Shown piece by piece: positions 1,679-44,953 of a stretch of 64,000 bases of DNA; the first letter of the stretch is position 1; each line of letters opens with the position of its first letter. The notes beneath the pieces were generated by a model. The model ran no database searches. It had not been told where the DNA came from and saw only the letters and a program-made list of their open reading frames with translations. Both the position numbers and the translations under genes were made by a program. The stretch is from positions 109,534 through 173,533 of the forward strand of contig JACKGS010000002.1 in the NCBI GenBank assembly GCA_020631865.1. The letters are read 5' to 3'. The DNA is from Candidatus Nomurabacteria bacterium (GTDB taxonomy: Bacteria > Patescibacteriota > Saccharimonadia > Saccharimonadales > UBA7683).

Positions 1679-4207
1679 ATGGATGAATCTAATACAACTA
1701 ATAATTTGCAAGATGAACAATCGGTAGTACTTCAGGATGGTAACGGAATAGAACACAGAACGCTTGAAAATGTAATGGAAGATAACTTCTTCCGATATTC
1801 CATGAGTGTCATAATAGAGAGAGCGTTGCCGGATGTACGTGATGGCTTAAAGCCAGTGCATAGACGTATTTTATATACCATGAATAGGGATGGGCTAAGG
1901 GCTGGGTCTAAGCATAGAAAGAGTGCAACTGTGGTCGGTGCCGTAATGGGTGATTTCCATCCTCATGGTGATACGGCTATTTATGATTCAATGGTGCGTT
2001 TGGCGCAGCCGTGGTCGCTTAGATATCCTTTGATTGATGGCCAGGGGAACTTTGGTTCTATGGACGGCGACGAAGCTGCTGCAATGAGGTATACCGAGGC
2101 AAGAATGGCTAGGCCGGCAGATGAGCTTTTGGTTGATATAGACAAAGATACTATTGATTTTAGAGACAACTATGATGGTCGTCTCCAGGAGCCAGTCGTC
2201 TTGCCGGCAAAATTACCTAACCTTTTACTTAACGGACAGATTGGTATTGCTGTTGGTATGGCTACAAATATACCGCCACATAATCTTGGTGAGCTAGTTG
2301 ATGCGTGCATAGAACTTATAGATAATAAAGAGGCAACGATAGACGACTTACTTACCCACGTTAAAGGTCCAGATTTTCCAACAGGGGCTACTGTTTATGG
2401 TGGAGCACCAATGAAACAGGCGTATTTGACCGGCCGTGGAAGCGTGGTTATGCGCGCAGTAGCTAATATTGAAGAGACTAAAAAAGGTCGTCATCAGATA
2501 ATTATTACAGAAGTGCCATATGGTGTAAATAAAGCAACACTTATTGAAAAAATTGCTGAACTCGTTAAGGATAAAAAAATTGCCGGTATCGCAGATCTCA
2601 GAGACGAGACAGCTAGAGGGTCTGTACGAGTCGTAATTGAGCTTAAAAAAGATGCGTACCCCAAAAAGTTGTTAAATCAGTTGTATAAACAGACGACACT
2701 ACAATCTAGCTTTAACTTTAACATGCTTTCACTTGTTGACGGTATACAGCCACGTATTCTTGGCTTACAAGATATGCTTCAGGAGTTTATCAAGCATAGG
2801 CAGAAAGTCGTTCGCAGGCGTACTGAATTTGAGCTCAGGAAGGCCAAGGAGCGCGCACATGTTCTGGAAGGCTATAAAATAGCCCTCGATAATATCGATG
2901 CTGTAATTAAAACAATACGTTCAAGCAAAACCCAGGAGGAAGCTGAGAAAGGGCTTATTAAGCAATTTAAACTTTCAGAAATTCAAGCTAAGGCCATCTT
3001 GGCTATGCAACTTCGACGCTTGACTGGCCTGGAGCGTCAGGCGATTGAAGATGAATTAAATGAGCTAATGAAGATTATTGCTAAACTTGAGGCGATATTA
3101 GCTGACGAGGAAGAGATATTAAAAATTATTAAGACCGAGTTACTTGAGATGAAAGAAAGATTTGGTGACGAGCGAAGGTCTAAAATAATTAACCATGAAC
3201 TAGGTAAGTTTAGTGACGAAGAATTGATTCCAGAAGAACAGGTTGTTGTAACTGTTACATCAGAAAACTATATTAAACGAAGTTTGGCATCTGAATATCG
3301 ACGGCAAAATCGTGGTGGTAAGGGCAAGCGAGGAATGGCTACTAAAGAAGAGGATGTGATCGAACACGTTGTTCTTGCAAGTACTCACGACTTCTTGCTC
3401 TTCTTCACTAATAAAGGTAGGGTATTTAGGCTGAAGACTTATGAAGTTCCGGCAGCGGGATTAAATGCCAAGGGAGTTGCTGCGGTTAATCTATTACAAC
3501 TTCATCCAGAAGAGGTTGTGACGGCTGTAATAAAACACGATCCTAAGCACAAGACTGGCTATCTATTTATGACAACCAAGCAGGGGACTGTCAAAAAAAC
3601 TAAATTAGAGGATTACAATAATATACGAACTAGTGGTTTGATAGCCATAAAGATTGATGAAGGTGATGACCTTAAGTGGATTAGAGTTACAACCGGTGAT
3701 GATGAAGTTGTAATATCTACATCACTGGGGCAGGCTATTAGGTTCCATGAAAATGATGTTCGCCCAATGGGTCGTACTGCCAGGGGTGTAAGAGGTGTGC
3801 GACTTAAGGCTGGTGATGTCGTGGTCGGAATGGATATAGTACAGGAGAGCTCAAGTATCTTTGTGATCAGCGAGAAAGGGTACGGAAAGCGTACTAAAAT
3901 AGCTCAATTTAGCCCACATAAGCGAGGTGGGGTTGGTATTCGTTCAGCTGTTGTAAATACAAAAACAGGTAACCTTATATCAGTTAAGTCACTTACGGAT
4001 GAAACGCCTGAAGTAATAATCATATCTACAGCTGGCCAGACTATACGTCTTGGGTTGAAGGATATTCCTCAGCTTGGTAGAACAACACAGGGTGTTAGGA
4101 TAATGCGACTAGCGGACGGTGATGGTGTCGCTTCCATTGCCTTGGTTAGTAAAGATCAGTCTGGAAACGAGGAAGAAGAGGTGGTGAATGAGACAGTTTC
4201 TGAGTAG
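1679..4207 (+). CDS. gyrA: DNA gyrase subunit A
   Basis: ATG lies 1 nt after the gyrB stop. Has [16 protein letters not shown], the active-site region [10 protein letters not shown], and C-terminal repeated beta-pinwheel-like blades. 842 aa. Confidence 0.97.
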
Positions 4208-4897: not shown

Positions 4898-6531
<1,634 letters not shown>

Positions 6532-7148: not shown

Positions 7149-7225
7149 TGGTGGGCGATGGTGGACTTGAACCACCGACCTCGTCATTATCAGTGACGCG
7201 CTCTAACCAACTGAGCTAAACGCCC
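7149..7225 (-). tRNA. tRNA-Ile (anticodon GAU), CCA encoded
   Basis: Reverse complement GGGCGTTTAGCTCAGTTGGTTAGAGCGCGTCACTGATAATGACGAGGTCGGTGGTTCAAGTCCACCATCGCCCACCA. Folds as a cloverleaf with anticodon loop CTGATAA and one T-T mismatch in the acceptor stem. Confidence 0.93.
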
Positions 7226-7266
7226 ACAAGCTGAAATTCGACATGTAAAAGAAAAAAATCACAGTA

Positions 7267-7343
7267 TGGTGGAGCAACAGGGACTCGAACCCTGGACCCC
7301 CGCCTTGCAAAGGCGGTGCTCTAGCCAACTGAGCTATTGCCCC
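7267..7343 (-). tRNA. tRNA-Ala (anticodon UGC), CCA encoded
   Basis: Reverse complement GGGGCAATAGCTCAGTTGGCTAGAGCACCGCCTTTGCAAGGCGGGGGTCCAGGGTTCGAGTCCCTGTTGCTCCACCA. The G3:U70 alanine identity pair is present. Confidence 0.95.
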
Positions 7344-7956: not shown

Positions 7957-11225
<3,269 letters not shown>

Positions 11226-11230
11226 GACTA

Positions 11231-11297
11231 GATTTTGGATTATTGATTTTAGATTTTAGTTTTCTATAATCTATAATCAATGTCCAACAATCTAATC
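11231..11297 (+). repeat. heptamer-periodic hairpin in 23S trailer
   Basis: 5' arm GATTTTG GATTATT GATTTTA GATTTTA, loop TTTTC. 3' arm TATAATC TATAATC AATGTCC AACAATC. The arms pair imperfectly. Confidence 0.7.
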
Positions 11298-11449
11298 TAT
11301 GTTTGACCAGTTTTTGATGAGTATCATAATGTATATTCATGCAATTTGTTTCAATTTAATAATTTAGACCAAAACTTGCCGTCATCGTGAACTTGTTTCA
11401 GGATCCGGTATGGATGATCATCGACCAACTTCTCATTGAGCGAGAAGTG

Positions 11450-11515
11450 GACTGAAGACTGGAGACTGGAGACTGGAGAATTTATTCTTCAATCCTCAAT
11501 CTTCAATCCTTAATC
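11450..11515 (+). repeat. heptamer-periodic hairpin in 23S-5S spacer
   Basis: (GACTGAA/GACTGGA)x4, loop ATTTATT, then (TCAATCC/TCAATCT/TTAATCT)x4. By hand the arms pair with one mismatch per heptamer and G-U pairs on the + strand only. Confidence 0.75.
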
Positions 11516-11538
11516 TACTTCTTGCCTGTGGCAAGAAG

Positions 11539-19480: not shown

Positions 19481-19503
19481 CTGCCATCTCCATTTTCAGA
19501 TGA

Positions 19504-19590
19504 GCAATATGAAATATGAAGTATAAAATATGTGTTCCATTCCGCGGTAGACTGCAGCCTCTCCATATTCCATATTCCATATTCCATATT
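19504..19590 (-). repeat. 28-bp heptamer-periodic RNA hairpin in the def-fmt spacer
   Basis: On the minus-strand RNA, (GGAAUAU)x4 (from + 19563-19590) pairs with AUAUUUU AUACUUC AUAUUUC AUAUUGC (from + 19504-19531). Hand count: 22 Watson-Crick pairs, 4 G-U pairs and 2 mismatches. The loop is about 31 nt. Confidence 0.8.
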
Positions 19591-19612
19591 TCTTTTCTCG
19601 TATTCCATTTTG

Positions 19613-20248: not shown

Positions 20249-20278
20249 AGGAATATGAAGTATGAAATATAGAAAAAG
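20249..20278 (+). repeat. solo purine-rich heptamer arm (same family as 19504-19531 and the complement of 30148-30185)
   Basis: AGGAATATGAAGTATGAAATATAGAAAAAG closely resembles the reverse complement of the 3' flank of the four-helix-bundle cassette (GAGGAATATGAAAAATGAAATATGAAAAATGG). Confidence 0.6.
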
Positions 20279-20329
20279 GTAATTAAGACAGTGTGCTGTG
20301 GAAAACTGATCATCTGATCCATAATTTTA

Positions 20330-20402: not shown

Positions 20403-23400
20403 GTGGGTAATATAAATACATCGACATGGGATCTATATGGATCGGGAGACTTGGAATTTGAAGATACTCCAAAAGATGGAGGGTCGTCTTTTGGGGCTGT
20501 TTCAGGCCAAGAAAGGCCTCATGTTTTTGAATCTCAAGATTCAATTTCGAATCATCCTAGTGAAGATAAATTAGATGTTTTAAATTCAAATACAGAGCCT
20601 GCTTCTGGCGGCGTTAGTGATAATAGCAATAGGAATCAAAAGTCTAGCCCATCTTCTTCTGGTAATACGCTATTATCTCCACGCCCTAACAAACCCAATG
20701 ACTCAAAGCATTCTTGGAGGAAGCCACTTTTAATTACGGTAATTTTACTTTTGCTACTAGGTTCGATAACTACATTAGCTCTATACCGTAATTCCGTGGC
20801 TAAATACAATAATTTGAAATCTGCTCAAAGCGCTTTACAGCAAGAGTTGCTGAAATCAGATGAAGCTAGCGCGGAAGAGCTTAAGGAGCTGGGCGACAAA
20901 GTTTCTATAATACGCGGCGAATTAGATAAAGATATTCCAGAGGATCTTCAGGAGCAATACCAAGATTTACTGCTTCAAATAAACTCTTTAACACAGAGCT
21001 CTAATCAGGCTGTTGCAAGTTCCGCCCAAGATCTACTCGCAAAATTAACCAACCAAGCTGGTGCTGGTATTTCACTTTCTCCGGACGGCAAGACCATTAC
21101 AAACTCTGGTGTACTATCGGTTAATAGTCAAACGGGTAATTTGAGTATTCAAGGTACGGCTAATCAAACAAATGTTACTCAAAACGGATCAACAACAACT
21201 ATTGGTACGGCTCAAGATATTGCGCAAACATCTAGTCCGACGTTTAACAATCAGACCTTAACTGGCAACGGAAATATCCAGGGCGGTTTGACAGTTGGCG
21301 GAACTACAACAACCAATAACCTAACAATACAATCTAGTGGAACGCAAAATGGTTACGCACTTTGTGATGCTAGCAATAACTGTGGTTACTCTGGTGCTGG
21401 TAGTAGTTATGTTCAGGGTGGTAATAGTTTTGGTAACCCTGCTTACTTGGGTACAAATGATAACAACTCTCTTAATTTAGAAACCAATGGAACTACTAGG
21501 TTGACAATAGATACCGCCGGCAACACAAGCTTGACTGGTAACTTAACAACCCCCGGCAGCGTTTCTGCCTCAAGCCTAAGCGGAAATGGCTCAGGCGTAA
21601 CAAATGTTGATGCTACTGCCTTAAACGGTAACACAGCAGGTAATAATAGCGGTCAGATTTCACTTAATAATGGTACAGTCAATTCTAATCTTAATTCAGA
21701 TCTTCTTGACGGCCAACATGGAAGCTACTATCAAAATGCAAGCAATATTAATGCCGGGACACTTTCAGATGCAAGACTGTCTTCTAATGTAACCCTGCAA
21801 GGCAATAGCTTTAACGGTATTAATCAATTAGTGCAATTGAATGGTTCCGGGTATTTACCGTCACTTAACGGTTCTTTAGTAACAAATGTAGATGCGCTAA
21901 CGCTTCAAGGAAATAGCGCTAGCTACTTTACAAATGCAAGCAACATAGCCTCTGGAACACTTTCGGATTTACGCCTCAGCTCTAACATACCCTTAAAAAA
22001 TGCCACTAACACCTTCACCGGCACAAATAACTTTGCCGGAATAACTGCAACCGGAATTCTACAAGGTGGCTACAGTGTTTGCGATGCCAGCAATAACTGT
22101 AACTACGCTACAAATTCTCAATTTGCATCTGCAATTCTACAGGGTGGCAACTCTTTTGGCACAACAATGAGGATAGGTACAAACGATAGCCAGAGTCTTG
22201 TTTTGAAGTCTAACAATGTTGATGCTATGACAATTGCTTCCGATGGTAGGATAGGTATAAATAGTACACCATCCGCTGTCTACAGACTGTCAGTGAATGC
22301 TGATGCTAGGGCTATGTTTGTAGGGCATGTTTCAATACCCGTACTTGATAATAGTTTTTCATTGAATGTTTCAAATTACTATCAATCACATGGTGCAATT
22401 GGTATTCGTCTGAATGCAGGAACAACCGCTCCGCACATTAGGTCATATCTAGATAGCACTAAGGTATTTGAGGTTGGATCAGCCGGTCAAGGGTATTTTG
22501 CCGGTAATACTAGTATTGGAACTACGTCTGATCTTGGACAGTTAGCCGTGGTGAATACAAGTACAACACAGGCGGTTATGGTGGTTCGCGGAGCTTCTGG
22601 TCAAGCAGGTGATTTGCAGCAATGGCAGAATAGCTCAGGTACAGTATTGAGCAGGGTGGCTAGTAATGGCGCTATACAGCTAGGTTTTAATGTAGCACTA
22701 CAAGCGGAGCATTCTGGTGGCGGTGGTTTTGTTGATCTCATAAAAAGAGGGAGTGGGAATAGTGTATATGTAGGTAATACAACTTCAGAGACATTTTTGC
22801 AGGGGCATAATTATACCTTCCTTACAACTTCAAGTTCTCAGGGTGGGATAAGGCTATATGCCTCGGAGGTTACAAAGTACGGAGGTATTGGATACTTGGG
22901 TACTAGTTCAATTCCGTGGAATCAATTATTTCTACAGTCTGTAACAAATTCAGCTACGCCACTATACGTTAAGGGTGCTTTGTCACAAACTGCCAACTTA
23001 ACCGAATGGCAAGATAACTCAGGCTCTATTTTAGGATCAGTCAATAACTTGGGGAATCTTACTATGGACAGGGGTTTTAGTGCAATCAGCGCTGGCGTGG
23101 CAGGTGCAACGTATAGTATTGGTTATAATGGAGTATCAATAGCGGCATGGAGATCAGATCCTGTTTGGGAGTCTGGTAGTTCAGTTCTTTCACCTTCTGC
23201 TGGAAAGTCCATATTTGTGAAGAGCTCAGCGGTCGGTGATACGGCGCTTAAAGTTAAGGCATTCACTGGTCAAACCGCAGACCTCCAACAATGGCAAAAT
23301 AGCTCTGGCACGGTGCTTTCTAGAATTACATCTGACGGCAGGTTGGCTGTTACGGATGCAAGTGATGGCGTTGTAGTTGCTAGCGTAGGAAGTCAGCTTG

Positions 23401-24407
23401 TGGGTGCGGGCATAAATCTTGGACGAGGTAAGTATGATACAAGCTCGTATGGCTTATGGGGTAACCCTGATTCGGCAACAGGAGATGGCAATATAACGAT
23501 TGCACCAAGGAATAAAAACAATAGTAACGGTGCTTATGTGACAGTGGGCCAAACTAGCTCATCAACTGACAGGGGATATATCAGGCTACAGGCTGGGTAC
23601 TACGCTGGGAGTTCAATGTATGGTAGAGTTGTGATTTCTACGGGATCTACGCCAGGTGCAAATTCATTTGTGGTTAATGAAAACCAGCAAGTTGGCATTG
23701 GAACGGCTACATTTGGAGCCAGCAATAAATTTACAGTTAATAGTAATACTACATCGGATAATTCGGCTTCAGTACAAATAAATACCGGTGGCACCAGTAA
23801 CAAGGGGATAGTAGTACAGGGTATTACTTCTCAATCAGGTGATTTACTGCAGGCACAAGATTCAACTGGTGCTGTGCTTGCAAAGATTGATGCAGATGGG
23901 GACTTGACGGCAAGGAGCGGGGACTTTGGTTCATCTTCGGTTACGTATGGTTTGTTCAGCAGAGGTTCTAGTGCAGCAGTTCTGGGTCAGGCTTATGGTG
24001 GGGATGGCATTAGAGGTCAATCATTGACGAATGGATCGGTAGCTTTGGCAGCCACTGGATGTGCCGGTTGTGCTGGTGATCTTCTTCAGGCAAGAGATTC
24101 GGTGGGGACAGTTTTGGCTAGAATAACTGCTAGCGGGGATTTGACGGTGAAGAATGCGAGTGTTGAAGGAGCGTATATTACGTTCAGTAATAATATCCGT
24201 GGATATAATGTGAGTGTTACAGCTTCGGCTACCTCTCAGACAGTTAGTTTCGGTACAGCACATCCAGATGCAAACTATGCAGTTTTCTGTACCCCAGACT
24301 GGAACACCAGCTGTTATGTAAGCAATAAAACAGTCAACGGCTTCACACTAAACTACGGCACCGCCGCCCCAGCCGCCCAACAAGTAGACTGGTTCGTCGC
24401 CAGATAA
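20403..24407 (+). CDS. 1334-aa membrane-anchored fibre/adhesin-like surface protein
   Basis: Disordered N-terminus, then one TM helix (LLITVILLLLLGSITTLALY), then a coiled coil. Long G/N/T/S-rich repeats follow (two CDASNNC[GN]Y modules, two LSD[AL]RLSSN motifs). Five copies of G/A-DL-xx-W/A-Q-[ND]S-xG-x-[VI]L-x-x-[VI]. C-terminal ~70-aa globular domain ending DWFVAR. Confidence 0.85.
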   Translation: MGNINTSTWDLYGSGDLEFEDTPKDGGSSFGAVSGQERPHVFESQDSISNHPSEDKLDVLNSNTEPASGGVSDNSNRNQKSSPSSSGNTLLSPRPNKPNDSKHSWRKPLLITVILLLLLGSITTLALYRNSVAKYNNLKSAQSALQQELLKSDEASAEELKELGDKVSIIRGELDKDIPEDLQEQYQDLLLQINSLTQSSNQAVASSAQDLLAKLTNQAGAGISLSPDGKTITNSGVLSVNSQTGNLSIQGTANQTNVTQNGSTTTIGTAQDIAQTSSPTFNNQTLTGNGNIQGGLTVGGTTTTNNLTIQSSGTQNGYALCDASNNCGYSGAGSSYVQGGNSFGNPAYLGTNDNNSLNLETNGTTRLTIDTAGNTSLTGNLTTPGSVSASSLSGNGSGVTNVDATALNGNTAGNNSGQISLNNGTVNSNLNSDLLDGQHGSYYQNASNINAGTLSDARLSSNVTLQGNSFNGINQLVQLNGSGYLPSLNGSLVTNVDALTLQGNSASYFTNASNIASGTLSDLRLSSNIPLKNATNTFTGTNNFAGITATGILQGGYSVCDASNNCNYATNSQFASAILQGGNSFGTTMRIGTNDSQSLVLKSNNVDAMTIASDGRIGINSTPSAVYRLSVNADARAMFVGHVSIPVLDNSFSLNVSNYYQSHGAIGIRLNAGTTAPHIRSYLDSTKVFEVGSAGQGYFAGNTSIGTTSDLGQLAVVNTSTTQAVMVVRGASGQAGDLQQWQNSSGTVLSRVASNGAIQLGFNVALQAEHSGGGGFVDLIKRGSGNSVYVGNTTSETFLQGHNYTFLTTSSSQGGIRLYASEVTKYGGIGYLGTSSIPWNQLFLQSVTNSATPLYVKGALSQTANLTEWQDNSGSILGSVNNLGNLTMDRGFSAISAGVAGATYSIGYNGVSIAAWRSDPVWESGSSVLSPSAGKSIFVKSSAVGDTALKVKAFTGQTADLQQWQNSSGTVLSRITSDGRLAVTDASDGVVVASVGSQLVGAGINLGRGKYDTSSYGLWGNPDSATGDGNITIAPRNKNNSNGAYVTVGQTSSSTDRGYIRLQAGYYAGSSMYGRVVISTGSTPGANSFVVNENQQVGIGTATFGASNKFTVNSNTTSDNSASVQINTGGTSNKGIVVQGITSQSGDLLQAQDSTGAVLAKIDADGDLTARSGDFGSSSVTYGLFSRGSSAAVLGQAYGGDGIRGQSLTNGSVALAATGCAGCAGDLLQARDSVGTVLARITASGDLTVKNASVEGAYITFSNNIRGYNVSVTASATSQTVSFGTAHPDANYAVFCTPDWNTSCYVSNKTVNGFTLNYGTAAPAAQQVDWFVAR

Positions 24408-25799: not shown

Positions 25800-26234
25800 A
25801 TGACAAAAACGGATCCATACATTACAAGAAAAGATTTAGATGAGGCTATGGATAAAGTTGTCTCTGGCATATCGGATGTTATTGCTGATCTCGCACATAA
25901 TATAGATCAAAGATTTGAAGGTGTCGATCAGAGATTCGAAAGCATTGATAAAAGATTCGAAAGCATTGATCAAAGATTCGATGGTGTTGAAAAAAGATTA
26001 GACAACATGGATATTAGAATGTCGCGTATAGAATACGACGTTTCTGATATTAAAACTGATATCGTACACTTGAAAGAATCACACGATAGACTGCTTAATA
26101 CCGTAGATAGATTCATTGGTAGAATTGAGAAGTATGAAACAGAACTTTCAGCAAGAGATTCCCAGTTCGAGAGACTATTAGATTGGGCTAAGAAGGTTTC
26201 TGTCAAAACCGGTATACCTCTAGAAGACTTTTAG
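25800..26234 (+). CDS. coiled-coil protein with six 7-residue (21-nt) tandem repeats
   Basis: IDQRFEG VDQRFES IDKRFES IDQRFDG VEKRLDN MDIRMSR. 144 aa. Confidence 0.65.
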   Translation: MTKTDPYITRKDLDEAMDKVVSGISDVIADLAHNIDQRFEGVDQRFESIDKRFESIDQRFDGVEKRLDNMDIRMSRIEYDVSDIKTDIVHLKESHDRLLNTVDRFIGRIEKYETELSARDSQFERLLDWAKKVSVKTGIPLEDF

Positions 26235-26241
26235 TAAGCAT

Positions 26242-28185
26242 TTAAAGAAGATTAATTGGGTCTAGGGTAAATTGCCAGCGCTGTGGAAGATTCTTGGCAA
26301 TTTCTACTAATGTAGACCTTCTTGATGAGCTGACGGTAAGCTGTTGATAGAACAATTTACCTCGATGCTCATGGAAAGCCGGCGATGGTCCACGTACGAA
26401 TATACCTTTATATTTTATCTTCAGTTCTTTTGTAAGTTTTTGTGCTGCATTTTCAGCAGTGGATACAGATGCATAGCCGGTTGTTAAATGAAGCAAGAAT
26501 GTGTGTGGTGGCATGTGTTCTGCGCTACGTTCATTAATTTCATAATCGTAAAATTTTCCATAATTTTGTTCACAAGCAAATTGAATTGCCGGATGATCTG
26601 GATTAAGTGTCTGGATTATTACATGGCTTTTATGCCCGCCTCTGCCAGCGCGACCGATTACCTGAGTGGTGAGTTGAAATGAGCGTTCGCAACTTGAATA
26701 ATCTGGGATAAATAATTCTGAATCTGCCTGAATAATACCAACGGTATTTAAGTGAGGAAGATCTAATCCTTTGGCGATGCCTTGAGTACCTATTATTATC
26801 TGAATTTTATTATCGTACAGGTCTTGGTATCTGTTATGAAGTTGTTCATTCTCCGGGGTGTCACCATCAAATCTTGCTACGACACTATCCGGAAATAGTT
26901 TAATAACTTCTGATTCAATTCGCTTGCTCCCAAAGCCCTTAAAGTCTATGTTTGGGCTTTTGCAATCTGGACATACTTGTGGTGGTCTTTGCGTCAGTCC
27001 ACAAGTATGACACTTCAAAATATTTTTGTCGTGATGAAGTCGAAAGGGTATGTGACAATTTTGACACTCGGCAGACCACCCACAGTCAGAGCACAGGCTC
27101 ATTCTAGCAGTTCCACGACGATTATGAAAAAGTAAAATTTGTTCGTTTTGGGTAATGGAATTATTCATCGCTTCTAGTAGTTTTTTGCTGAATAACTGAT
27201 GTGTTCCAAAAGAGCTTCTGTCTCGCATGTCCACAACTTCGATAGCGGTATTTCTTGCTTGAGTAGTATTATTTAAAGATATAACCGGCGTTCCGGTAGC
27301 TTGAGCAATAAAGTAGTCAGCTATGGCTGGTGTTGCACTGCCGAGCACTAATTTTGCATTTTTTTGTAGCTCAGCTAATTTTCTGGCAACTCGTAGAGTA
27401 GAATATTTTGGTTGTGAATCTTGGATATAGCTGGGCTCATGACACTCATCAATAATAATAAGTCCTAAGTTGGATATTGGCGCAAAAAGACTAGACCTTG
27501 GCCCAACAATTACCCAGGGATCTTCGGTGCCATTAAGTATTTGCCAATTTTTATGTCGCTGAGATTCTGTAAGCCCAGAATGTAAAACCAGCACTCTGTC
27601 ATGTAGCTGTTCAAATTCTGTTGCTAATTGTGGCGTTAAAGAAATCTCGGGTACCAAAACTAAAACACTTTTTTGTTCTTTGAGTATTTTTTTGGCTAGC
27701 TCTTGATAAACCCGTGTTTTGCCTGAGCCAGTTATGCCATGAAGTAGATGTGTAATAGAATTTGAATTTTCAATTTCCACTATGGCATTTTGCTGATCAC
27801 GTGTTAGCGTGTGTAGGGTTTCAGATCTTTTGATTTTCATAAAATTGTTTTCGGCGGTACGCCTCTTTTTGTCTAGGCCTTTTGGTAAAATTGACTGCAA
27901 AACTATAGAAAGCCTGGTGGCGTAAAATTCACTTATCCAAACAGCTAGATCAATTAAGTGCTTCGGAACGGCCTCATCCAATGTTTCATCTATATCTTTT
28001 GTTGCAAACCTGGGTTTTGAAGTAGTGTCGACAATTATCCCCAGCTTCTTTAGCTTCCCAAATGGAATACGCGCTACGGTACCAATGGTAATTTCTTTTT
28101 CAGAGCTATAAGTTAAAAGATCTTCACGTCCACCAATAACTCCAATCGGACAAACTAGATAGTAATTCACATATTCAAGTATCAA
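26242..28185 (-). CDS. priA: primosomal protein N' (replication restart helicase PriA)
   Basis: Walker A GITGSGKT, DExH-like IIDECHE, and the Cys-rich insertion CSDCGW..CQNC...CHTCG...CPDC. The start is uncertain (TTG 28185 or GTG 28170). Confidence 0.92.
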   Translation of the reverse strand: MILEYVNYYLVCPIGVIGGREDLLTYSSEKEITIGTVARIPFGKLKKLGIIVDTTSKPRFATKDIDETLDEAVPKHLIDLAVWISEFYATRLSIVLQSILPKGLDKKRRTAENNFMKIKRSETLHTLTRDQQNAIVEIENSNSITHLLHGITGSGKTRVYQELAKKILKEQKSVLVLVPEISLTPQLATEFEQLHDRVLVLHSGLTESQRHKNWQILNGTEDPWVIVGPRSSLFAPISNLGLIIIDECHEPSYIQDSQPKYSTLRVARKLAELQKNAKLVLGSATPAIADYFIAQATGTPVISLNNTTQARNTAIEVVDMRDRSSFGTHQLFSKKLLEAMNNSITQNEQILLFHNRRGTARMSLCSDCGWSAECQNCHIPFRLHHDKNILKCHTCGLTQRPPQVCPDCKSPNIDFKGFGSKRIESEVIKLFPDSVVARFDGDTPENEQLHNRYQDLYDNKIQIIIGTQGIAKGLDLPHLNTVGIIQADSELFIPDYSSCERSFQLTTQVIGRAGRGGHKSHVIIQTLNPDHPAIQFACEQNYGKFYDYEINERSAEHMPPHTFLLHLTTGYASVSTAENAAQKLTKELKIKYKGIFVRGPSPAFHEHRGKLFYQQLTVSSSRRSTLVEIAKNLPQRWQFTLDPINLL

Positions 28186-28209
28186 GTATCAAGTATCAAG
28201 TATCAAGTA
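28175..28209. repeat. perfect heptamer tandem array (TCAAGTA)x5
   Basis: Five exact 7-nt units overlapping the annotated priA start, in the priA / wHTH-gene divergent region. Confidence 0.9.
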
Positions 28210-28321
28210 TCTCAATAGTATTGCGCTAAGAATCATCATTATCAAACACCCTATGTAAATGGGTCAAAATTGTGAAATATTGTACTTTCAACAATAATGA
28301 ACGTGGTATAATTGAATAGTA

Positions 28322-28626: not shown

Positions 28627-29022
28627 GTGATGAGTAATCAATTACACAGAGTATGTATCAAGGCTCTTATTAAAGATGGCGATAAGATACTATTGGCACG
28701 TGAACCTACTGGTGTTTGGGATTTGCTAGGTGGTGGCATAGAGGGCACGGAATCTCCGCTAGAGTGTCTTGTGCGTGAGATTAAGGAAGAGTCTGGAATT
28801 GATTTAAAATCTTACACTACCCAACCAAGCTTCTTTTTTACATCACTCAGCAACAGAGGAAGCCCGGTCGCAGTAGCTGTTTACGAAGTGGAGCTGGCGT
28901 CTATGAATTTTCGACCTTCTGAAGAATGTGAGGAGTTGCGTTTTATCGCAAAGAGCCATGTGGATACTTTGAAAATCTCACCAAGTGCTAAAAAACTCAT
29001 CGAATTGATTCAAGATGCTTGA
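28627..29022 (+). CDS. NUDIX hydrolase
   Basis: Nudix box GGGIEGTESPLECLVREIKEESGI. ATG 28630 is the likely start. Confidence 0.85.
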   Translation: MMSNQLHRVCIKALIKDGDKILLAREPTGVWDLLGGGIEGTESPLECLVREIKEESGIDLKSYTTQPSFFFTSLSNRGSPVAVAVYEVELASMNFRPSEECEELRFIAKSHVDTLKISPSAKKLIELIQDA

Positions 29023-29273: not shown

Positions 29274-29732
29274 ATGTCGTTAAAACTGCGTATTGAAGCC
29301 GATATTAAATCGGCCATGCTTTCTCGTGAGCAATTTATTGTCGAAACTCTTAGGACAGTTAAAGGTGTAATTCTTAATGAAGAGGTGGCCAAGGGTGTTC
29401 GAGATGCAGGTTTAGACGATGCTTCAATAGAGAGTCTGCTGGCAAAAGAGGTTAAAAAGAGGCATGAAGCTGCTGAACTATTTGAAAAAGGTGGAAATTC
29501 TGAGTCGGCTAAAAAAGAACTTAAAGAAGCCGAGCTTCTACAGGCATACTTGCCGAAACAGCTTTCTGAAGAAGAAATAAAATCAGTCATAGATTCAGTT
29601 ATTTCTGAAACTGGAGCTAGCTCTGCTGGGCAGATGGGACAAGTGATCGGTGGCGTTAAAGCCAAAGTCGGTAATCAGGCAGACGGCGCGCTTATTGCAC
29701 GGTTGGTGAAGCAGATGCTTGCACAAGACTAG
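29274..29732 (+). CDS. GatB/YqeY domain protein
   Basis: Has IKSAMLSRE...TLR, AYLPKQLSEEEI and GQMGQVIGGVKAKVGNQADG. Confidence 0.85.
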   Translation: MSLKLRIEADIKSAMLSREQFIVETLRTVKGVILNEEVAKGVRDAGLDDASIESLLAKEVKKRHEAAELFEKGGNSESAKKELKEAELLQAYLPKQLSEEEIKSVIDSVISETGASSAGQMGQVIGGVKAKVGNQADGALIARLVKQMLAQD

Positions 29733-30185
29733 AAATACGTAATAAGAAAAAAGAAATATGGGAAAACAAAACGAACTAAAAGCATTTCAAGATCTAACAG
29801 TATGGCAAGAAAGTAGAAAACTGTTCTTTATAATTTATAAATTAACTAAACAGTTTCCAAAAGAAGAGGTTTTTAGTTCAGTTTCACAGATGCGTAGATC
29901 TTCTATGTCCATCTCGTCTAATATTGCAGAAGGATTTGGAAGGTCATCAATAGCGGATAAGTTACATTTTTATATTATGGCTCGTGGGTCTTTGACAGAA
30001 TTGCAAAATCAAATAATACTTACTGGAGATGTTGGTTTGATTACAGCAGAAAATATAAAAATAGCACTTGAACAAGCTGAAATAACCCATAAACTGGTAG
30101 TAGGTTTAATTAAAGTAACTGAACGGAGAAAACAATGAAGCGAAGTCCATTTTTCATATTTCATTTTTCATATTCCTCTTCTCTC
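29732..30185 (+). other. four-helix-bundle gene cassette bracketed by heptamer-periodic arms
   Basis: The 5' arm AGAAATACGTAATAAGAAAAAAGAAATATGG contains the ATG. The 3' arm is CCATTTTTCATATTTCATTTTTCATATTCCTC. By hand, about 22 of 31 positions can pair across the ORF. Confidence 0.6.
29758..30138 (+). CDS. four-helix-bundle protein ('23S rRNA intervening-sequence protein' family)
   Basis: 126 aa. Family-typical FxDLxVWQ, QMRRSSxSISSNIAEG.GR and ARGSL.EL. Confidence 0.85.
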   Translation: MGKQNELKAFQDLTVWQESRKLFFIIYKLTKQFPKEEVFSSVSQMRRSSMSISSNIAEGFGRSSIADKLHFYIMARGSLTELQNQIILTGDVGLITAENIKIALEQAEITHKLVVGLIKVTERRKQ

Positions 30186-30199
30186 ATGGGAGACTTCCG

Positions 30200-30754
30200 A
30201 TGATAATATTTTTCGGACCTGCTGGGGCGGGTAAAAGTGTACAGGGTCAATTATTGGCGGCTCGATATGGTTGGAGATGGCTTTCTGCGGGACAATTACT
30301 TAGAGATACCAGAGACCCTCAGCTTTTAAAAGAGATGCAAAGCGGTGGTTTGGCTAATAGCGAAAAGGTTAATGAAATCTTTGAAGATGCTTTAATAAAG
30401 GCTAAAGATATAGATGGCGTTATATCTGATGGTTTTCCGAGAGAGCTTAGTCAGGCAAAGTGGTTAGTAGATGCACTGCCAAAGCACGAACGTTCAATAG
30501 CATTGGTTGTCGTGTTGGAGGTTCCGCGTTCAGAAATCGACAACCGTCTTAAGTTAAGAGGTAGAGCTGATGATACCCCAGATGCCATAGAGCAAAGATT
30601 GAGTATTTATAGGCAAGAAGTCTACCCAATCTTAAATTACTTTGCCGAAAAAGGTTTAAAAATAGCACATATAGACGGAACGGGTTCGGTTGGCCAGGTA
30701 CATGACCGCGTTGTTTCTGAGCTTCAAGCAATTAATCTAAATCCAGCGGTATAA
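30200..30754 (+). CDS. adk: adenylate kinase (short form, no Zn lid)
   Basis: P-loop GPAGAGKS, then DGFPR and RxDD. Followed by map, as in spc-operon ends. Confidence 0.85.
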   Translation: MIIFFGPAGAGKSVQGQLLAARYGWRWLSAGQLLRDTRDPQLLKEMQSGGLANSEKVNEIFEDALIKAKDIDGVISDGFPRELSQAKWLVDALPKHERSIALVVVLEVPRSEIDNRLKLRGRADDTPDAIEQRLSIYRQEVYPILNYFAEKGLKIAHIDGTGSVGQVHDRVVSELQAINLNPAV

Positions 30755-44817: not shown

Positions 44818-44953
44818 AGGAGAAGAAATATGAGATACGGGATAGATAATATGGAGAAAATTATGGATGATCGGGAATTTAATCTAATCAAGCAAACTCG
44901 TCAGGTTGATTGCATATCAGCCCATATGCTATATTCTATGTTCCATATTCCTG
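44818..44953 (+). repeat. ORF-less heptamer-arm element in the parA-parB spacer
   Basis: The 5' arm GAGAAGAAATATGAGATACGGGATAGATAATATGGAG and the 3' arm CCCATATGCTATATTCTATGTTCCATATTCCTG resemble the flanks of the 29732-30185 cassette. Confidence 0.6.

Follow-up and report, generated by a model that had tools for sequence, protein, structure and literature searches.

Complementary heptamer arrays enclose a four-helix-bundle protein gene in the yqeY-adk operon of a Candidatus Nomurabacteria bacterium and at related loci

Introduction

Why would a small gene between yqeY and adk, in a protein-coding operon, lie in the loop of a long inverted repeat built of 7-nt units? The question is raised by a 64,000-nt stretch of DNA from a Candidatus Nomurabacteria bacterium (assembly GCA_020631865.1, contig JACKGS010000002.1, positions 109,534 to 173,533), hereafter called the window, in which such a gene encodes a 126-aa four-helix-bundle protein. 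An earlier reading made from the letters alone (the sequence-only reading) had noticed this layout and proposed that the gene is the autonomous or cargo-bearing form of a family of RNA-level stem elements. The locus touches on three matters long known apart, namely the very widespread PF05635 family of small proteins, whose function is unknown, the intervening sequences (IVSs) that fragment 23S rRNA, and the over-representation of 7-nt repeats such as the short tandemly repeated repetitive (STRR) sequences. Here we describe the gene and its inverted heptamer arrays as one unit, present in Patescibacteria, Cyanobacteria, Bacteroidota and Gammaproteobacteria, in ordinary operons and in rRNA. What is new is the four-helix-bundle cassette, probably of IVS type, in mRNA operons and the general association of the gene with heptamers: our literature search, of incomplete coverage, found no paper linking PF05635 genes generally with heptamer arrays, and only the description of the Coxiella IVS. 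The unit may thus offer a testable link between the PF05635 family and the unexplained heptamer repeats of bacterial genomes.

The Gene and Its Heptamer Arms

The 5' arm (GAAATACGTAATAAGAAAAAAGAAATATGG; coordinates in Table 1) consists of four purine-rich heptamers, GAAATAC, GTAATAA, GAAAAAA and GAAATAT, followed by GG. Its first nucleotide is the third base of the yqeY stop codon, and the ATG of the cassette lies within it. The 3' arm (CCATTTTTCATATTTCATTTTTCATATTCC), located 8 nt past the TGA of the open reading frame (ORF), consists of four pyrimidine-rich heptamers, CCATTTT, TCATATT, TCATTTT and TCATATT, followed by CC, and leads into a 23-nt tail (TCTTCTCTCATGGGAGACTTCCG) with a Shine-Dalgarno-like GGGAG for adk. 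The arms, their positions and the placement of the ORF in the loop had been given exactly by the sequence-only reading, as judged by the sequence, by profile matches and by the minimum free energy (MFE) and centroid folds of positions 29720-30200, both of which keep the long-range stem. An inverted-repeat search found the arms to be 21/25 complementary (84%) in the best register, and 72-80% complementary over 20-29 nt when the register is moved by the repeat period; the 22 of 31 pairs previously counted by hand are correct in their own register. The predicted energy of the arm duplex, -19.8 kcal/mol, gives z = -2.6 when compared with shuffled arms (4/300). Tandem arrays with four or more units occur nine times in the window at lag 7 and not once at lags 4-6 or 8-12. 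The energy of the stem is unexceptional within the window; our claim rests on comparative data.

A profile of 56 sequences, run against one genome for each GTDB species, gave 80 loci with 45-60% identity, nearly all from Patescibacteria, with a few records labelled otherwise. Almost every locus has a period-7 array just upstream of the gene and a complementary array just downstream. The units vary by locus and include GATTTAT/TAAATCA, GAATTAT/TAATTCA, GTATTAA/AAATACT, GGAATAT/CCATATT, CACATTT and GAGTCAA/TGACTCA, among others. Arrays of at least three units at 75% or better were found on the 5' side of 67/82 loci, on the 3' side of 70/82 and on both sides of 60/82. With a stricter threshold (at least four units at 80% or better), 43% of the loci had an upstream array and 45% a downstream array, while the flanks of control genes reached 5% and 8% (p = 6e-14 and 3e-11), and the lags from 4 to 12 other than 7 accounted for at most 1% each at cassette flanks. 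The arrays hold a median of 4.4 units (5') and 4.3 units (3'). In the median, the 5' array reaches 5 nt beyond the A of the ATG and the 3' array starts 4 nt before the end of the stop codon, which in the family usually lies inside the array, whereas in the window copy it precedes it.

The sequence-only reading had predicted that other four-helix-bundle genes would carry such arms, that the arms would pair beyond the AT-rich background, and that they would be biased in orientation. All three predictions agree with what we observed. Arms flank a paralogue between atpD and atpC and 82-85% of the 82 loci per side. The arms of a locus are complementary to each other at a median of 18/21 positions, against 14/21 for permuted partners, and 17/21 or more is reached by 77% of own pairs, compared with 11% when arms are paired with those of other loci. 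Both neighbours are co-directional with the gene at 65/76 loci, as against 89/147 control triples (61%; p = 1e-4). The consensus units of the two arms agree within one mismatch at 29/46 loci (11% when permuted), and the register of the stem relative to the ORF ends falls into one class modulo 7 at 29/65 loci (p = 4e-9). The neighbouring genes belong to more than 90 Pfam families and frequently encode two subunits of a single enzyme (ATP synthase gamma/beta/epsilon, pyruvate:ferredoxin oxidoreductase, split transketolase, PurL, and pilins of the type IV secretion system). At the level of sequence, these comparisons show the ORF plus its arms to be a conserved unit of the gene family across phyla, with arm sequences that turn over while each stays matched to its own partner and 7-periodic.

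Chance complementarity of AT-rich spacers around an ordinary small gene would suit the unremarkable stem energy in the window. It would not produce arrays confined to lag 7, a layout shared by 82-85% of the 82 loci, with 5-8% of control flanks at the stricter threshold, and recurring across phyla, or arms that pair far better with their own partners than with permuted ones. The comparative data refute this explanation, and we give it practically no credence.

The unit consensus of 62 stems is G-A-A-T-Y-A-W, with G at 96%, A at 73% and A at 69% in the first three positions, followed by T/Y/A/W. The mismatch rate depends on the phase: it is 2-7% at positions 0 to +2 (2% for the G:C pair), 25% at +4 and 31% at +6. 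Mismatches, mainly A:A and U:U, are enriched at spacings of 7, 14 and 21 nt. Judged by these patterns, the stems are helices with one weak spot per repeat rather than perfect duplexes.

Insertion Between yqeY and adk and Proposed Spread of the Unit

The species recurs in at least 81 assembly blocks. The identical locus was found on many metagenomic contigs, and the cassette is also present in lineage L007, whose protein is 94% identical. Relatives with YqeY proteins 74%, 70% and 62% identical keep the order rpsU-yqeY-adk-map-ftsA and lack the four-helix-bundle gene. At the empty sites (L100-L102), the TAA of yqeY is followed by AGTT, GGTT or GCTT and then by the ATG of adk, and a fourth cassette-less relative has a 30-nt spacer between the two genes. 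This comparison shows the segment from about 29733 to 30199 to be an insertion of approximately 467 nt into an otherwise 4-nt, translationally coupled yqeY-adk junction. Presence/absence variation between sister genomes, on which the sequence-only reading had made its hypothesis depend, is thereby seen at this site. The window lineage and L007 do not differ in the 64 nt after the stop codon, which comprise spacer, 3' arm and tail; the flanking genes of a lineage with an identical 3' arm differ by 13-15%. Identity between L001 and L007 is 100% over a 200-nt block (locus positions 3299-3498, window ~30056-30255) that runs from the 3' part of the ORF through the 3' arm and the tail to the 55th nt of adk, the flanking genes being 76-90% identical. 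Synonymous divergence (dS) between the window and L007 is 0.30 in the cassette versus 0.8-0.95 in yqeY and adk.

The paralogue between atpD and atpC is 70% identical and co-oriented with these genes. Its 5' arm (AATATGAAAAATGGAATATGAAAAATGGG), with AATATGA/AAAATGG units, has the start codon inside, and its 3' arm (CCCCATATTCCATATTCCATATTTCATATTTCAT), with CCATATT/TCATATT units, is followed by a GGAG-bearing tail before atpC. Tails comparable to that of the window copy (CTCATCTGA...GGAG) lie 3' of the 3' arm both here and in an ORF-less element between def and fmt. Among all sampled proteins, the nearest relative of the window copy is the atp copy of its own lineage and not the atp-site proteins of other species, and the two copies share a heptamer class, suggesting that the whole unit was duplicated within the lineage. 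The atpD-atpC site is occupied in eight loci, seven of them from different species (L009 and L012 belong to one 89%-identical protein lineage). The cassettes at this site use five or more different heptamers and their proteins do not form one clade, which points to either repeated insertion at a favoured site or replacement. Vertical descent of one ancient atpD-atpC insertion is unsupported, as the eight proteins do not group as mutual closest relatives. Similar proteins tend to go with similar heptamers (Mantel r = -0.27, 0/2000 permutations), suggesting that ORF and arms are co-inherited or co-evolving. In some Patescibacteria (L015, L020, L038, L052), two cassettes occur in tandem or within ~2 kb, each with its own different heptamer.

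The family extends to other phyla, and tblastn searches located it on cyanobacterial and Bacteroidota plasmids. The Calothrix gene is flanked by GGGTGTA x4 / CTACACC x4, the Nostoc punctiforme gene by CAGGAGT xN / CCTGACT x3 with the stop codon inside the array, and the Riemerella gene by GGTTTAA / AAACCTT. In Stanieria, a heptamer array is on the 3' side and a short stretch complementary to it lies further upstream, and Nostoc PCC 7120 has arrays on the 3' side only. In several Xanthomonas species (L104-L106), the orthologue of Xcc0516 lies between accB and accC, co-oriented with them, with the arms CGGGAAT, CGGGAGT, GGAGAAT, GGGGAAT and CTCCATT, CCCGATT, CTCCATT, CCCAATT. Across the four bacterial phyla sampled, most PF05635 genes examined carry what their sequences indicate to be inverted period-7 arrays. 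GGGAATC repeats, the type to which these arms belong, have been catalogued in Xanthomonas, with 70-75 convergent pairs, and proposed to form G-quadruplexes (Rehm et al., 2015; PMC4692102); that paper makes no connection with the four-helix-bundle gene.

A Probable IVS-Type Cassette in an mRNA Operon

Our favoured reading, to which we assign a probability of roughly 0.6, is that the element is an IVS-type, promoter-less four-helix-bundle cassette that rides a host operon. The cassette is co-oriented with the operon. Its arms would pair in the polycistronic RNA to give an AU-rich stem of ~30 bp with a weak position every ~7 nt, which would loop out the ORF and sequester its start codon. Host RNase III would then cut the stem, as in the 23S IVSs of Coxiella, Leptospira and Salmonella. 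Cutting would release or regulate the four-helix-bundle mRNA, and the host RNA, be it rRNA or operon mRNA, would tolerate the insertion. The tail would re-supply a ribosome-binding site to the downstream host gene. Heptamer arrays would change by replication slippage, their complementarity being kept by selection and/or quasi-palindrome correction, and the cassette would occasionally duplicate as a unit to new inter-cistronic sites. A promoter and terminator scan at the cassette returned nothing above shuffle expectation, and Rfam matched no family on positions 29650-30260, even at E <= 1. A sigma-70-like TTGACA-17-AATACT (10/12) lies within the ORF at 29992-30020, upstream of adk; the number of such sites does not exceed shuffle expectation.

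The closest known counterparts are the 23S IVSs of Coxiella and Leptospira, which share with the window cassette the protein family, an ORF in the loop of a stem, terminal inverted repeats, the lack of an own promoter, and the riding of a highly expressed host transcript. In Coxiella burnetii, the helix-45 IVS carries an S23p ORF, two to three strain-variable GACAGAT heptamers before the ATG, and a 28-bp terminal stem; in vitro, RNase III cuts it at the first of these heptamers (PMC4990558). Tandem heptamers of this kind, directly 5' of the ORF start, are met again in the 5' arm of the window. Unlike the rRNA IVSs, the window cassette sits in the protein-coding operon yqeY-adk and has a tail that restores a ribosome-binding site; its ORF is under purifying selection, whereas the Coxiella ORF is decaying. 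Members of the family have also been seen inside 16S and 23S rRNA insertions of candidate phyla radiation bacteria (bioRxiv 10.1101/2024.02.27.582315) and wedged among cas genes, for example cmr3 and cmr2 (PMC3936711).

Several points weigh against the IVS-type reading. The window stem is weak by itself, with 22-25 of ~30 pairs, and does not stand out among random window pairs (501/3000). G:U pairs (46) show no significant excess over A:C (33; p = 0.18), so the sequence does not single out the sense RNA as the selected level. In three quarters of the loci, 1-2 positions separate the consensus unit of one arm from that of the other, and mismatches recur at fixed phases, unlike the expectation of selection for maximal pairing alone. 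The exact period of 7 has no explanation in the model. The 200-nt identity island at the window locus could be a recombination tract or the result of constraint. With respect to mobility, the longest flanking direct repeat averages 4.67 nt, against 4.32 nt for permuted flanks; repeats of 5-7 nt can be picked out by eye at three loci (AGACT, TGAGC, AAAATGG), and systematically they are no better than permuted flanks. Neither near-identical copies nor a mobility enzyme was found, so that the term mobile rests on comparative inference. Finally, we infer pairing in vivo and cleavage in this organism from cases in which RNase III cutting is known, and these are limited to the rRNA IVSs of Coxiella, Leptospira and Salmonella (PMC4990558).

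Arrays and Hairpins Without an ORF

The one-family hypothesis of the sequence-only reading linked the cassette to ORF-less hairpins and to hairpins in the rRNA operon (Table 1). Its core, the cassette together with the def-fmt element, is supported by our analysis, which does not extend this to the rRNA hairpins. The def-fmt hairpin folds at -37.6 kcal/mol (z = -6.1, 0/200 shuffles), and its 3' half aligns over 33/37 positions with the atp-type cassette, including the non-repeat tail CTCATCTGA (score 59, shuffle maximum 20). This alignment fixes the orientation of the element and makes it a probable deletion derivative of the cassette. The arms in the parA-parB spacer also belong to the heptamer family, as had been claimed. 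They pair in the MFE fold, yet the fold has z = -0.4 and their similarity to the cassette arms is near shuffle level; the element is possibly a decayed relative. The solo array previously noted at 20249 is present, is of the window-cassette heptamer family, has no partner arm and is predicted to be unstructured (z = +1.1). It lies ~125 nt upstream of the start of a 1334-aa ORF (20403-24407) with Ser/Thr/Asn/Gly repeats and no Pfam match, which may encode a large surface protein. Pfam matches bear out the names def, fmt, parA, parB, yqeY and adk.

Such arrays are not peculiar to the window. In the 431 kb covering the 80 foreign loci, we found 65 further period-7 arrays, some of them inverted pairs, and their unit is within one mismatch of that of the resident cassette in 33% of cases, compared with 9% for cassettes of other genomes. 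Sequence comparison thus shows ORF-less arm pairs to exist in cassette-bearing genomes.

Table 1. Positions in the window of the cassette, its ORF-less relatives, and the insertions and heptamer-periodic hairpins of the rRNA operon. TRF, Tandem Repeats Finder; z, fold energy relative to shuffled sequences.
Feature	Position	Strand	Basis or remark
16S rRNA insertion relative to E. coli, helix 6, ~157 nt	4974-5146		
7/25-nt periodic repeat in the 16S helix-6 insertion, after E. coli 76-92	5063-5123	+	TRF, mapping; z = -0.8, not significant
23S rRNA insertion relative to E. coli, after ~299, 144 nt	8266-8409		
23S rRNA insertion relative to E. coli, after 1718-1749, H63 region, ~142 nt	9794-9966		
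23S rRNA insertion relative to E. coli, after 2180-2213, H78/79 region, ~108 nt	10389-10529		
Hairpin extending a 23S rRNA helix, after E. coli ~2180-2213, H78/79 region	10425-10525	+	TRF; z = -3.4; position by mapping to E. coli rrlH
Heptamer-periodic hairpin in the 23S-5S spacer, TAGATTT-type	11229-11300	+	TRF; z = -6.6
Second 23S-5S spacer hairpin, GACTGGA x4 / TCAATCC x4	11446-11516	+	TRF; z = -5.9
ORF-less hairpin in the def-fmt spacer, AATATGG x4 / TCATATT	19481-19612	- (def-fmt transcription direction)	Heptamer family of the window cassette
Solo array, GGAATAT GAAGTAT GAAATAT AG	20249-20279	.	TRF, pattern search; divergent region between def and 1334-aa ORF
5' arm	29732-29761	+	Inverted repeat with 30147-30176
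Four-helix-bundle protein gene, 126 aa	29758-30138	+	PF05635 / TIGR02436 ('23S rRNA IVS protein', S23p)
3' arm	30147-30176	+	TRF period 7/14
Tail	30177-30199	+	Absent at empty sites
Degenerate inverted arrays in the parA-parB spacer, GAAATAT GAGATAC GGGATAG ... CCATATG CTATATT CTATGTT CCATATT	44818-44953	+	TRF period 7 at 44924-44950

The rRNA operon with its insertions lies within the same window. For its hairpins, the similarity of architecture claimed by the sequence-only reading stands for those in 23S and in the 23S-5S spacer, which fold significantly; the fold of the 16S repeat is not significant, and all of these hairpins use heptamer units other than the cassette's. The hairpin at 11446-11516 has one mismatch per heptamer and G:U pairs. 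The difference in units is compatible with kinship to the cassette arms, because these have many unit types themselves, and we found nothing positive in the sequences for it. None of the rRNA insertions in the window contains a four-helix-bundle ORF, and of the four only the 16S insertion and the last 23S insertion are heptamer-periodic. Between the 16S and 23S genes, tRNA-Ile(GAT) and tRNA-Ala(TGC) lie at 7149-7343 on the minus strand, opposite to both rRNAs, which is unusual for an rrn spacer.

Arm pairs and solo arms without an ORF also suit the view that the arms are DNA-level terminal inverted repeats of an element resembling MITEs (miniature inverted-repeat transposable elements) or repetitive extragenic palindromic (REP) sequences, moved by an enzyme encoded elsewhere and with the gene as a passenger. 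The combination of arms, ORF and tail at many unrelated inter-cistronic sites, the insertion polymorphism between sister genomes, the missing sense-strand RNA signature, and the location of Nostoc plasmid copies beside transposase genes would agree with this as well. Against it stand the lack of target-site duplications above chance and of near-identical copies within a genome, the two paralogues being 70% identical. We saw no transposase up to 3 kb from the window locus and from its orthologues; at the 80 other loci, the scan covered the immediate neighbours, by their commonest families. Unlike transposase-recognised ends, arm sequences differ radically among related cassettes, and the ORF is unlike cargo in being strongly conserved and in filling the loop exactly, with its start and stop inside the arms. 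We consider this explanation improbable.

The ORF-less hairpins also resemble known elements. ERIC/IRU, Correia/CREE, REP/BIME and MITEs are likewise ORF-less hairpins in transcribed inter-cistronic spacers, and Correia elements are RNase III substrates. Those families conserve a sequence, have many near-identical copies and usually a target-site duplication, whereas the cassette conserves its 7-nt periodicity and self-complementarity. The heptamer repeats of Beggiatoaceae, Bacteroidetes and Geobacter and the STRR sequences, which the earlier reading had called to mind, resemble the cassette arrays as tandem 7-nt units that are intergenic, often intra-operon, and sometimes in inverted pairs. 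The STRR comparison was a good lead, in that cyanobacterial four-helix-bundle genes are flanked by heptamer arrays too. Differences lie in the unit sequences (the cassette units are presumably distinct from STRR1-3), in the location of most STRR arrays away from any four-helix-bundle gene, and in the host, which here is not a cyanobacterium. The functional or evolutionary identity of STRR-type repeats with cassette arms is offered as a hypothesis. Two further comparisons were dropped. An integron gene cassette has a single 3' imperfect palindrome (attC), GTTRRRY cores and an integrase; here, arms flank both sides of the ORF, no GTTRRRY core is present in the sequence and no integrase in the neighbourhood. 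Telomere-like terminal arrays were rejected since each arm has its G-containing strand at the 5' end, the reverse of what telomerase makes.

The Four-Helix-Bundle Protein

The 126-aa protein is the sole member of its family in the window. It matches PF05635 with E = 2e-32 (111.9 bits, cut-off 33.8) and TIGR02436, 'four helix bundle protein', with E = 7e-30 (103.5 bits, cut-off 24). Its AlphaFold model, made for the monomer, has four helices (pLDDT 95.4), and the best Foldseek match is Xcc0516 of Xanthomonas campestris (2GSC; TM score 0.87-0.97, root-mean-square deviation 0.7 Å, 34% identity), followed by BT_0352 (2RLD; TM score 0.76-0.89) and then, at an identity of just 8-10%, by Avd, a protein of diversity-generating retroelements (DGRs; 4DWL, 8UB7). 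Xcc0516, the closest solved structure, also has orthologues with complementary heptamer arms, which differ from those of the window in being GC-rich. The crystal structures 2GSC, 2RLD and 4DWL have five chains each and are pentamers. The RxxxSxxxNxxE(G) motif described as conserved in the family (Zhang and Ye, 2013; Lin, 2006, as cited in PMC3936711) is found as R47-S51-N55-E58-G59 in ...QMRRSSMSISSNIAEGFGR..., and S54, A57, E58, G59 and R62 are invariant in the 56-sequence alignment. Purifying selection on the protein is indicated by dN/dS values of 0.08 (window copy versus the orthologue in L007) and 0.05 (L009 versus L012). We recognised no enzymatic domain in the protein and detected no target-site duplication, which leaves the 'autonomous' form of the sequence-only reading without backing. 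No homologue was found in phage records, and there is accordingly no sign of phage or DGR-phage origin.

The pentamers bring to mind another role for the arrays, as binding sites of a homopentamer that would contact about five tandem heptamers in single-stranded or partly melted RNA. TRAP, which binds GAG repeats, is an analogue. The protein would autoregulate translation of its own mRNA and act in trans on ORF-less arrays, and arm complementarity would be secondary. We regard this as possible but doubtful; it is compatible with the RNase III model and could be layered on it. The median numbers of units per array (interquartile range ~3.5-5) would match the pentamers of Xcc0516, BT_0352 and Avd, and the units have a conserved triplet with a variable remainder, mismatched most at +4 and +6. 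The correlation of protein with heptamer similarity fits as well, as do tandem cassettes with a heptamer each and extra arrays that share the resident heptamer. As precedent by analogy, all five Avd protomers in a DGR ribonucleoprotein contact one RNA stem-loop via flipped-out bases (bioRxiv 10.1101/2023.10.23.563531). For family members outside DGRs, such binding is argued by analogy only, with an identity to Avd as low as that given above, and co-inheritance would explain the protein-heptamer correlation equally well. Binding to one arm would not call for the conserved complementarity of the 3' arm to the 5' arm. The window has heptamer hairpins of at least four other unit types and one four-helix-bundle gene.

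Avd also suggests a form of retro-mobility, in which a resident reverse transcriptase (DGR or group II), with the Avd-like protein as its cofactor, would copy the stem-closed transcript, and new transcribed sites would take up the cDNA by recombination. Like the window protein, Avd has a four-helix-bundle fold; it forms a pentamer, is an obligatory cofactor of the reverse transcriptase and binds structured RNA encoded beside its own gene. Patescibacteria are rich in DGRs, and the cassettes occur only in transcribed, co-oriented contexts. A difference from Avd is that neither a reverse transcriptase nor a template or variable repeat lies beside the window cassette, and no reverse transcriptase is among the 25 commonest of the more than 90 neighbour families, the scan of the 80 other loci having covered immediate neighbours and template and variable repeats not having been specifically searched. 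No poly-A or other cDNA hallmark was seen, and the common tail lies outside the stem. We hold retro-mobility to be very unlikely; both it and the DNA-level, MITE-like model are less well supported than the IVS-type reading.

Extending the pentamer idea beyond this locus, PF05635 proteins would be pentameric, sequence-specific binders of tandem heptamers, each gene forming a self-contained cassette with its cognate array, and much of the unexplained heptamer excess of bacteria would consist of the cis-elements, decay products or trans-targets of the family. We put this forward tentatively, as a generalisation with the odds against it. If true, it would explain the STRR, Xanthomonas GGGAATC, Geobacter and Beggiatoa heptamers and the heptamer-periodic rRNA expansion hairpins of Patescibacteria. 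The association bears on the annotation of rRNA and operon structure in candidate-phyla bacteria, and on the reading of heptamer simple sequence repeats as regulatory or phase-variable elements.

Other Features Around the Locus

The source names attached to homologous proteins and contigs place the window in a Candidatus Saccharimonadales genome (Patescibacteria/CPR). The gene order at the host locus is priA (minus strand), a small helix-turn-helix (HTH) gene, NUDIX, rpsU, yqeY, the four-helix-bundle ORF, adk, map, ftsA and ftsZ, all on the plus strand from the HTH gene on. The NUDIX gene upstream of rpsU (28627-29022) varies in presence among L003, L004 and L007 versus L001, despite identical or 94%-identical four-helix-bundle proteins. 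The map-ftsA junction holds extra DNA in relatives, at 4758-5710 of L002 (~900 nt) and 4771-5974 of L007, and none in the window lineage; the extra DNA of L007 has a 160-aa minus-strand ORF without a Pfam hit. At 28170-28215, where priA and the 92-aa HTH-like ORF diverge, there is a perfect solo array, (TCAAGTA) x5.3, with CATATTC before it. It is without an inverted partner or predicted structure, and in a different genome (L062) units of the GTATCAA type make up the cassette arms. Positions 25905-26013 contain a 21/42-nt tandem repeat (AGATTCGAAAGCATTGATAAA) in ~4 copies at 75-77%, 21 being 3 x 7.

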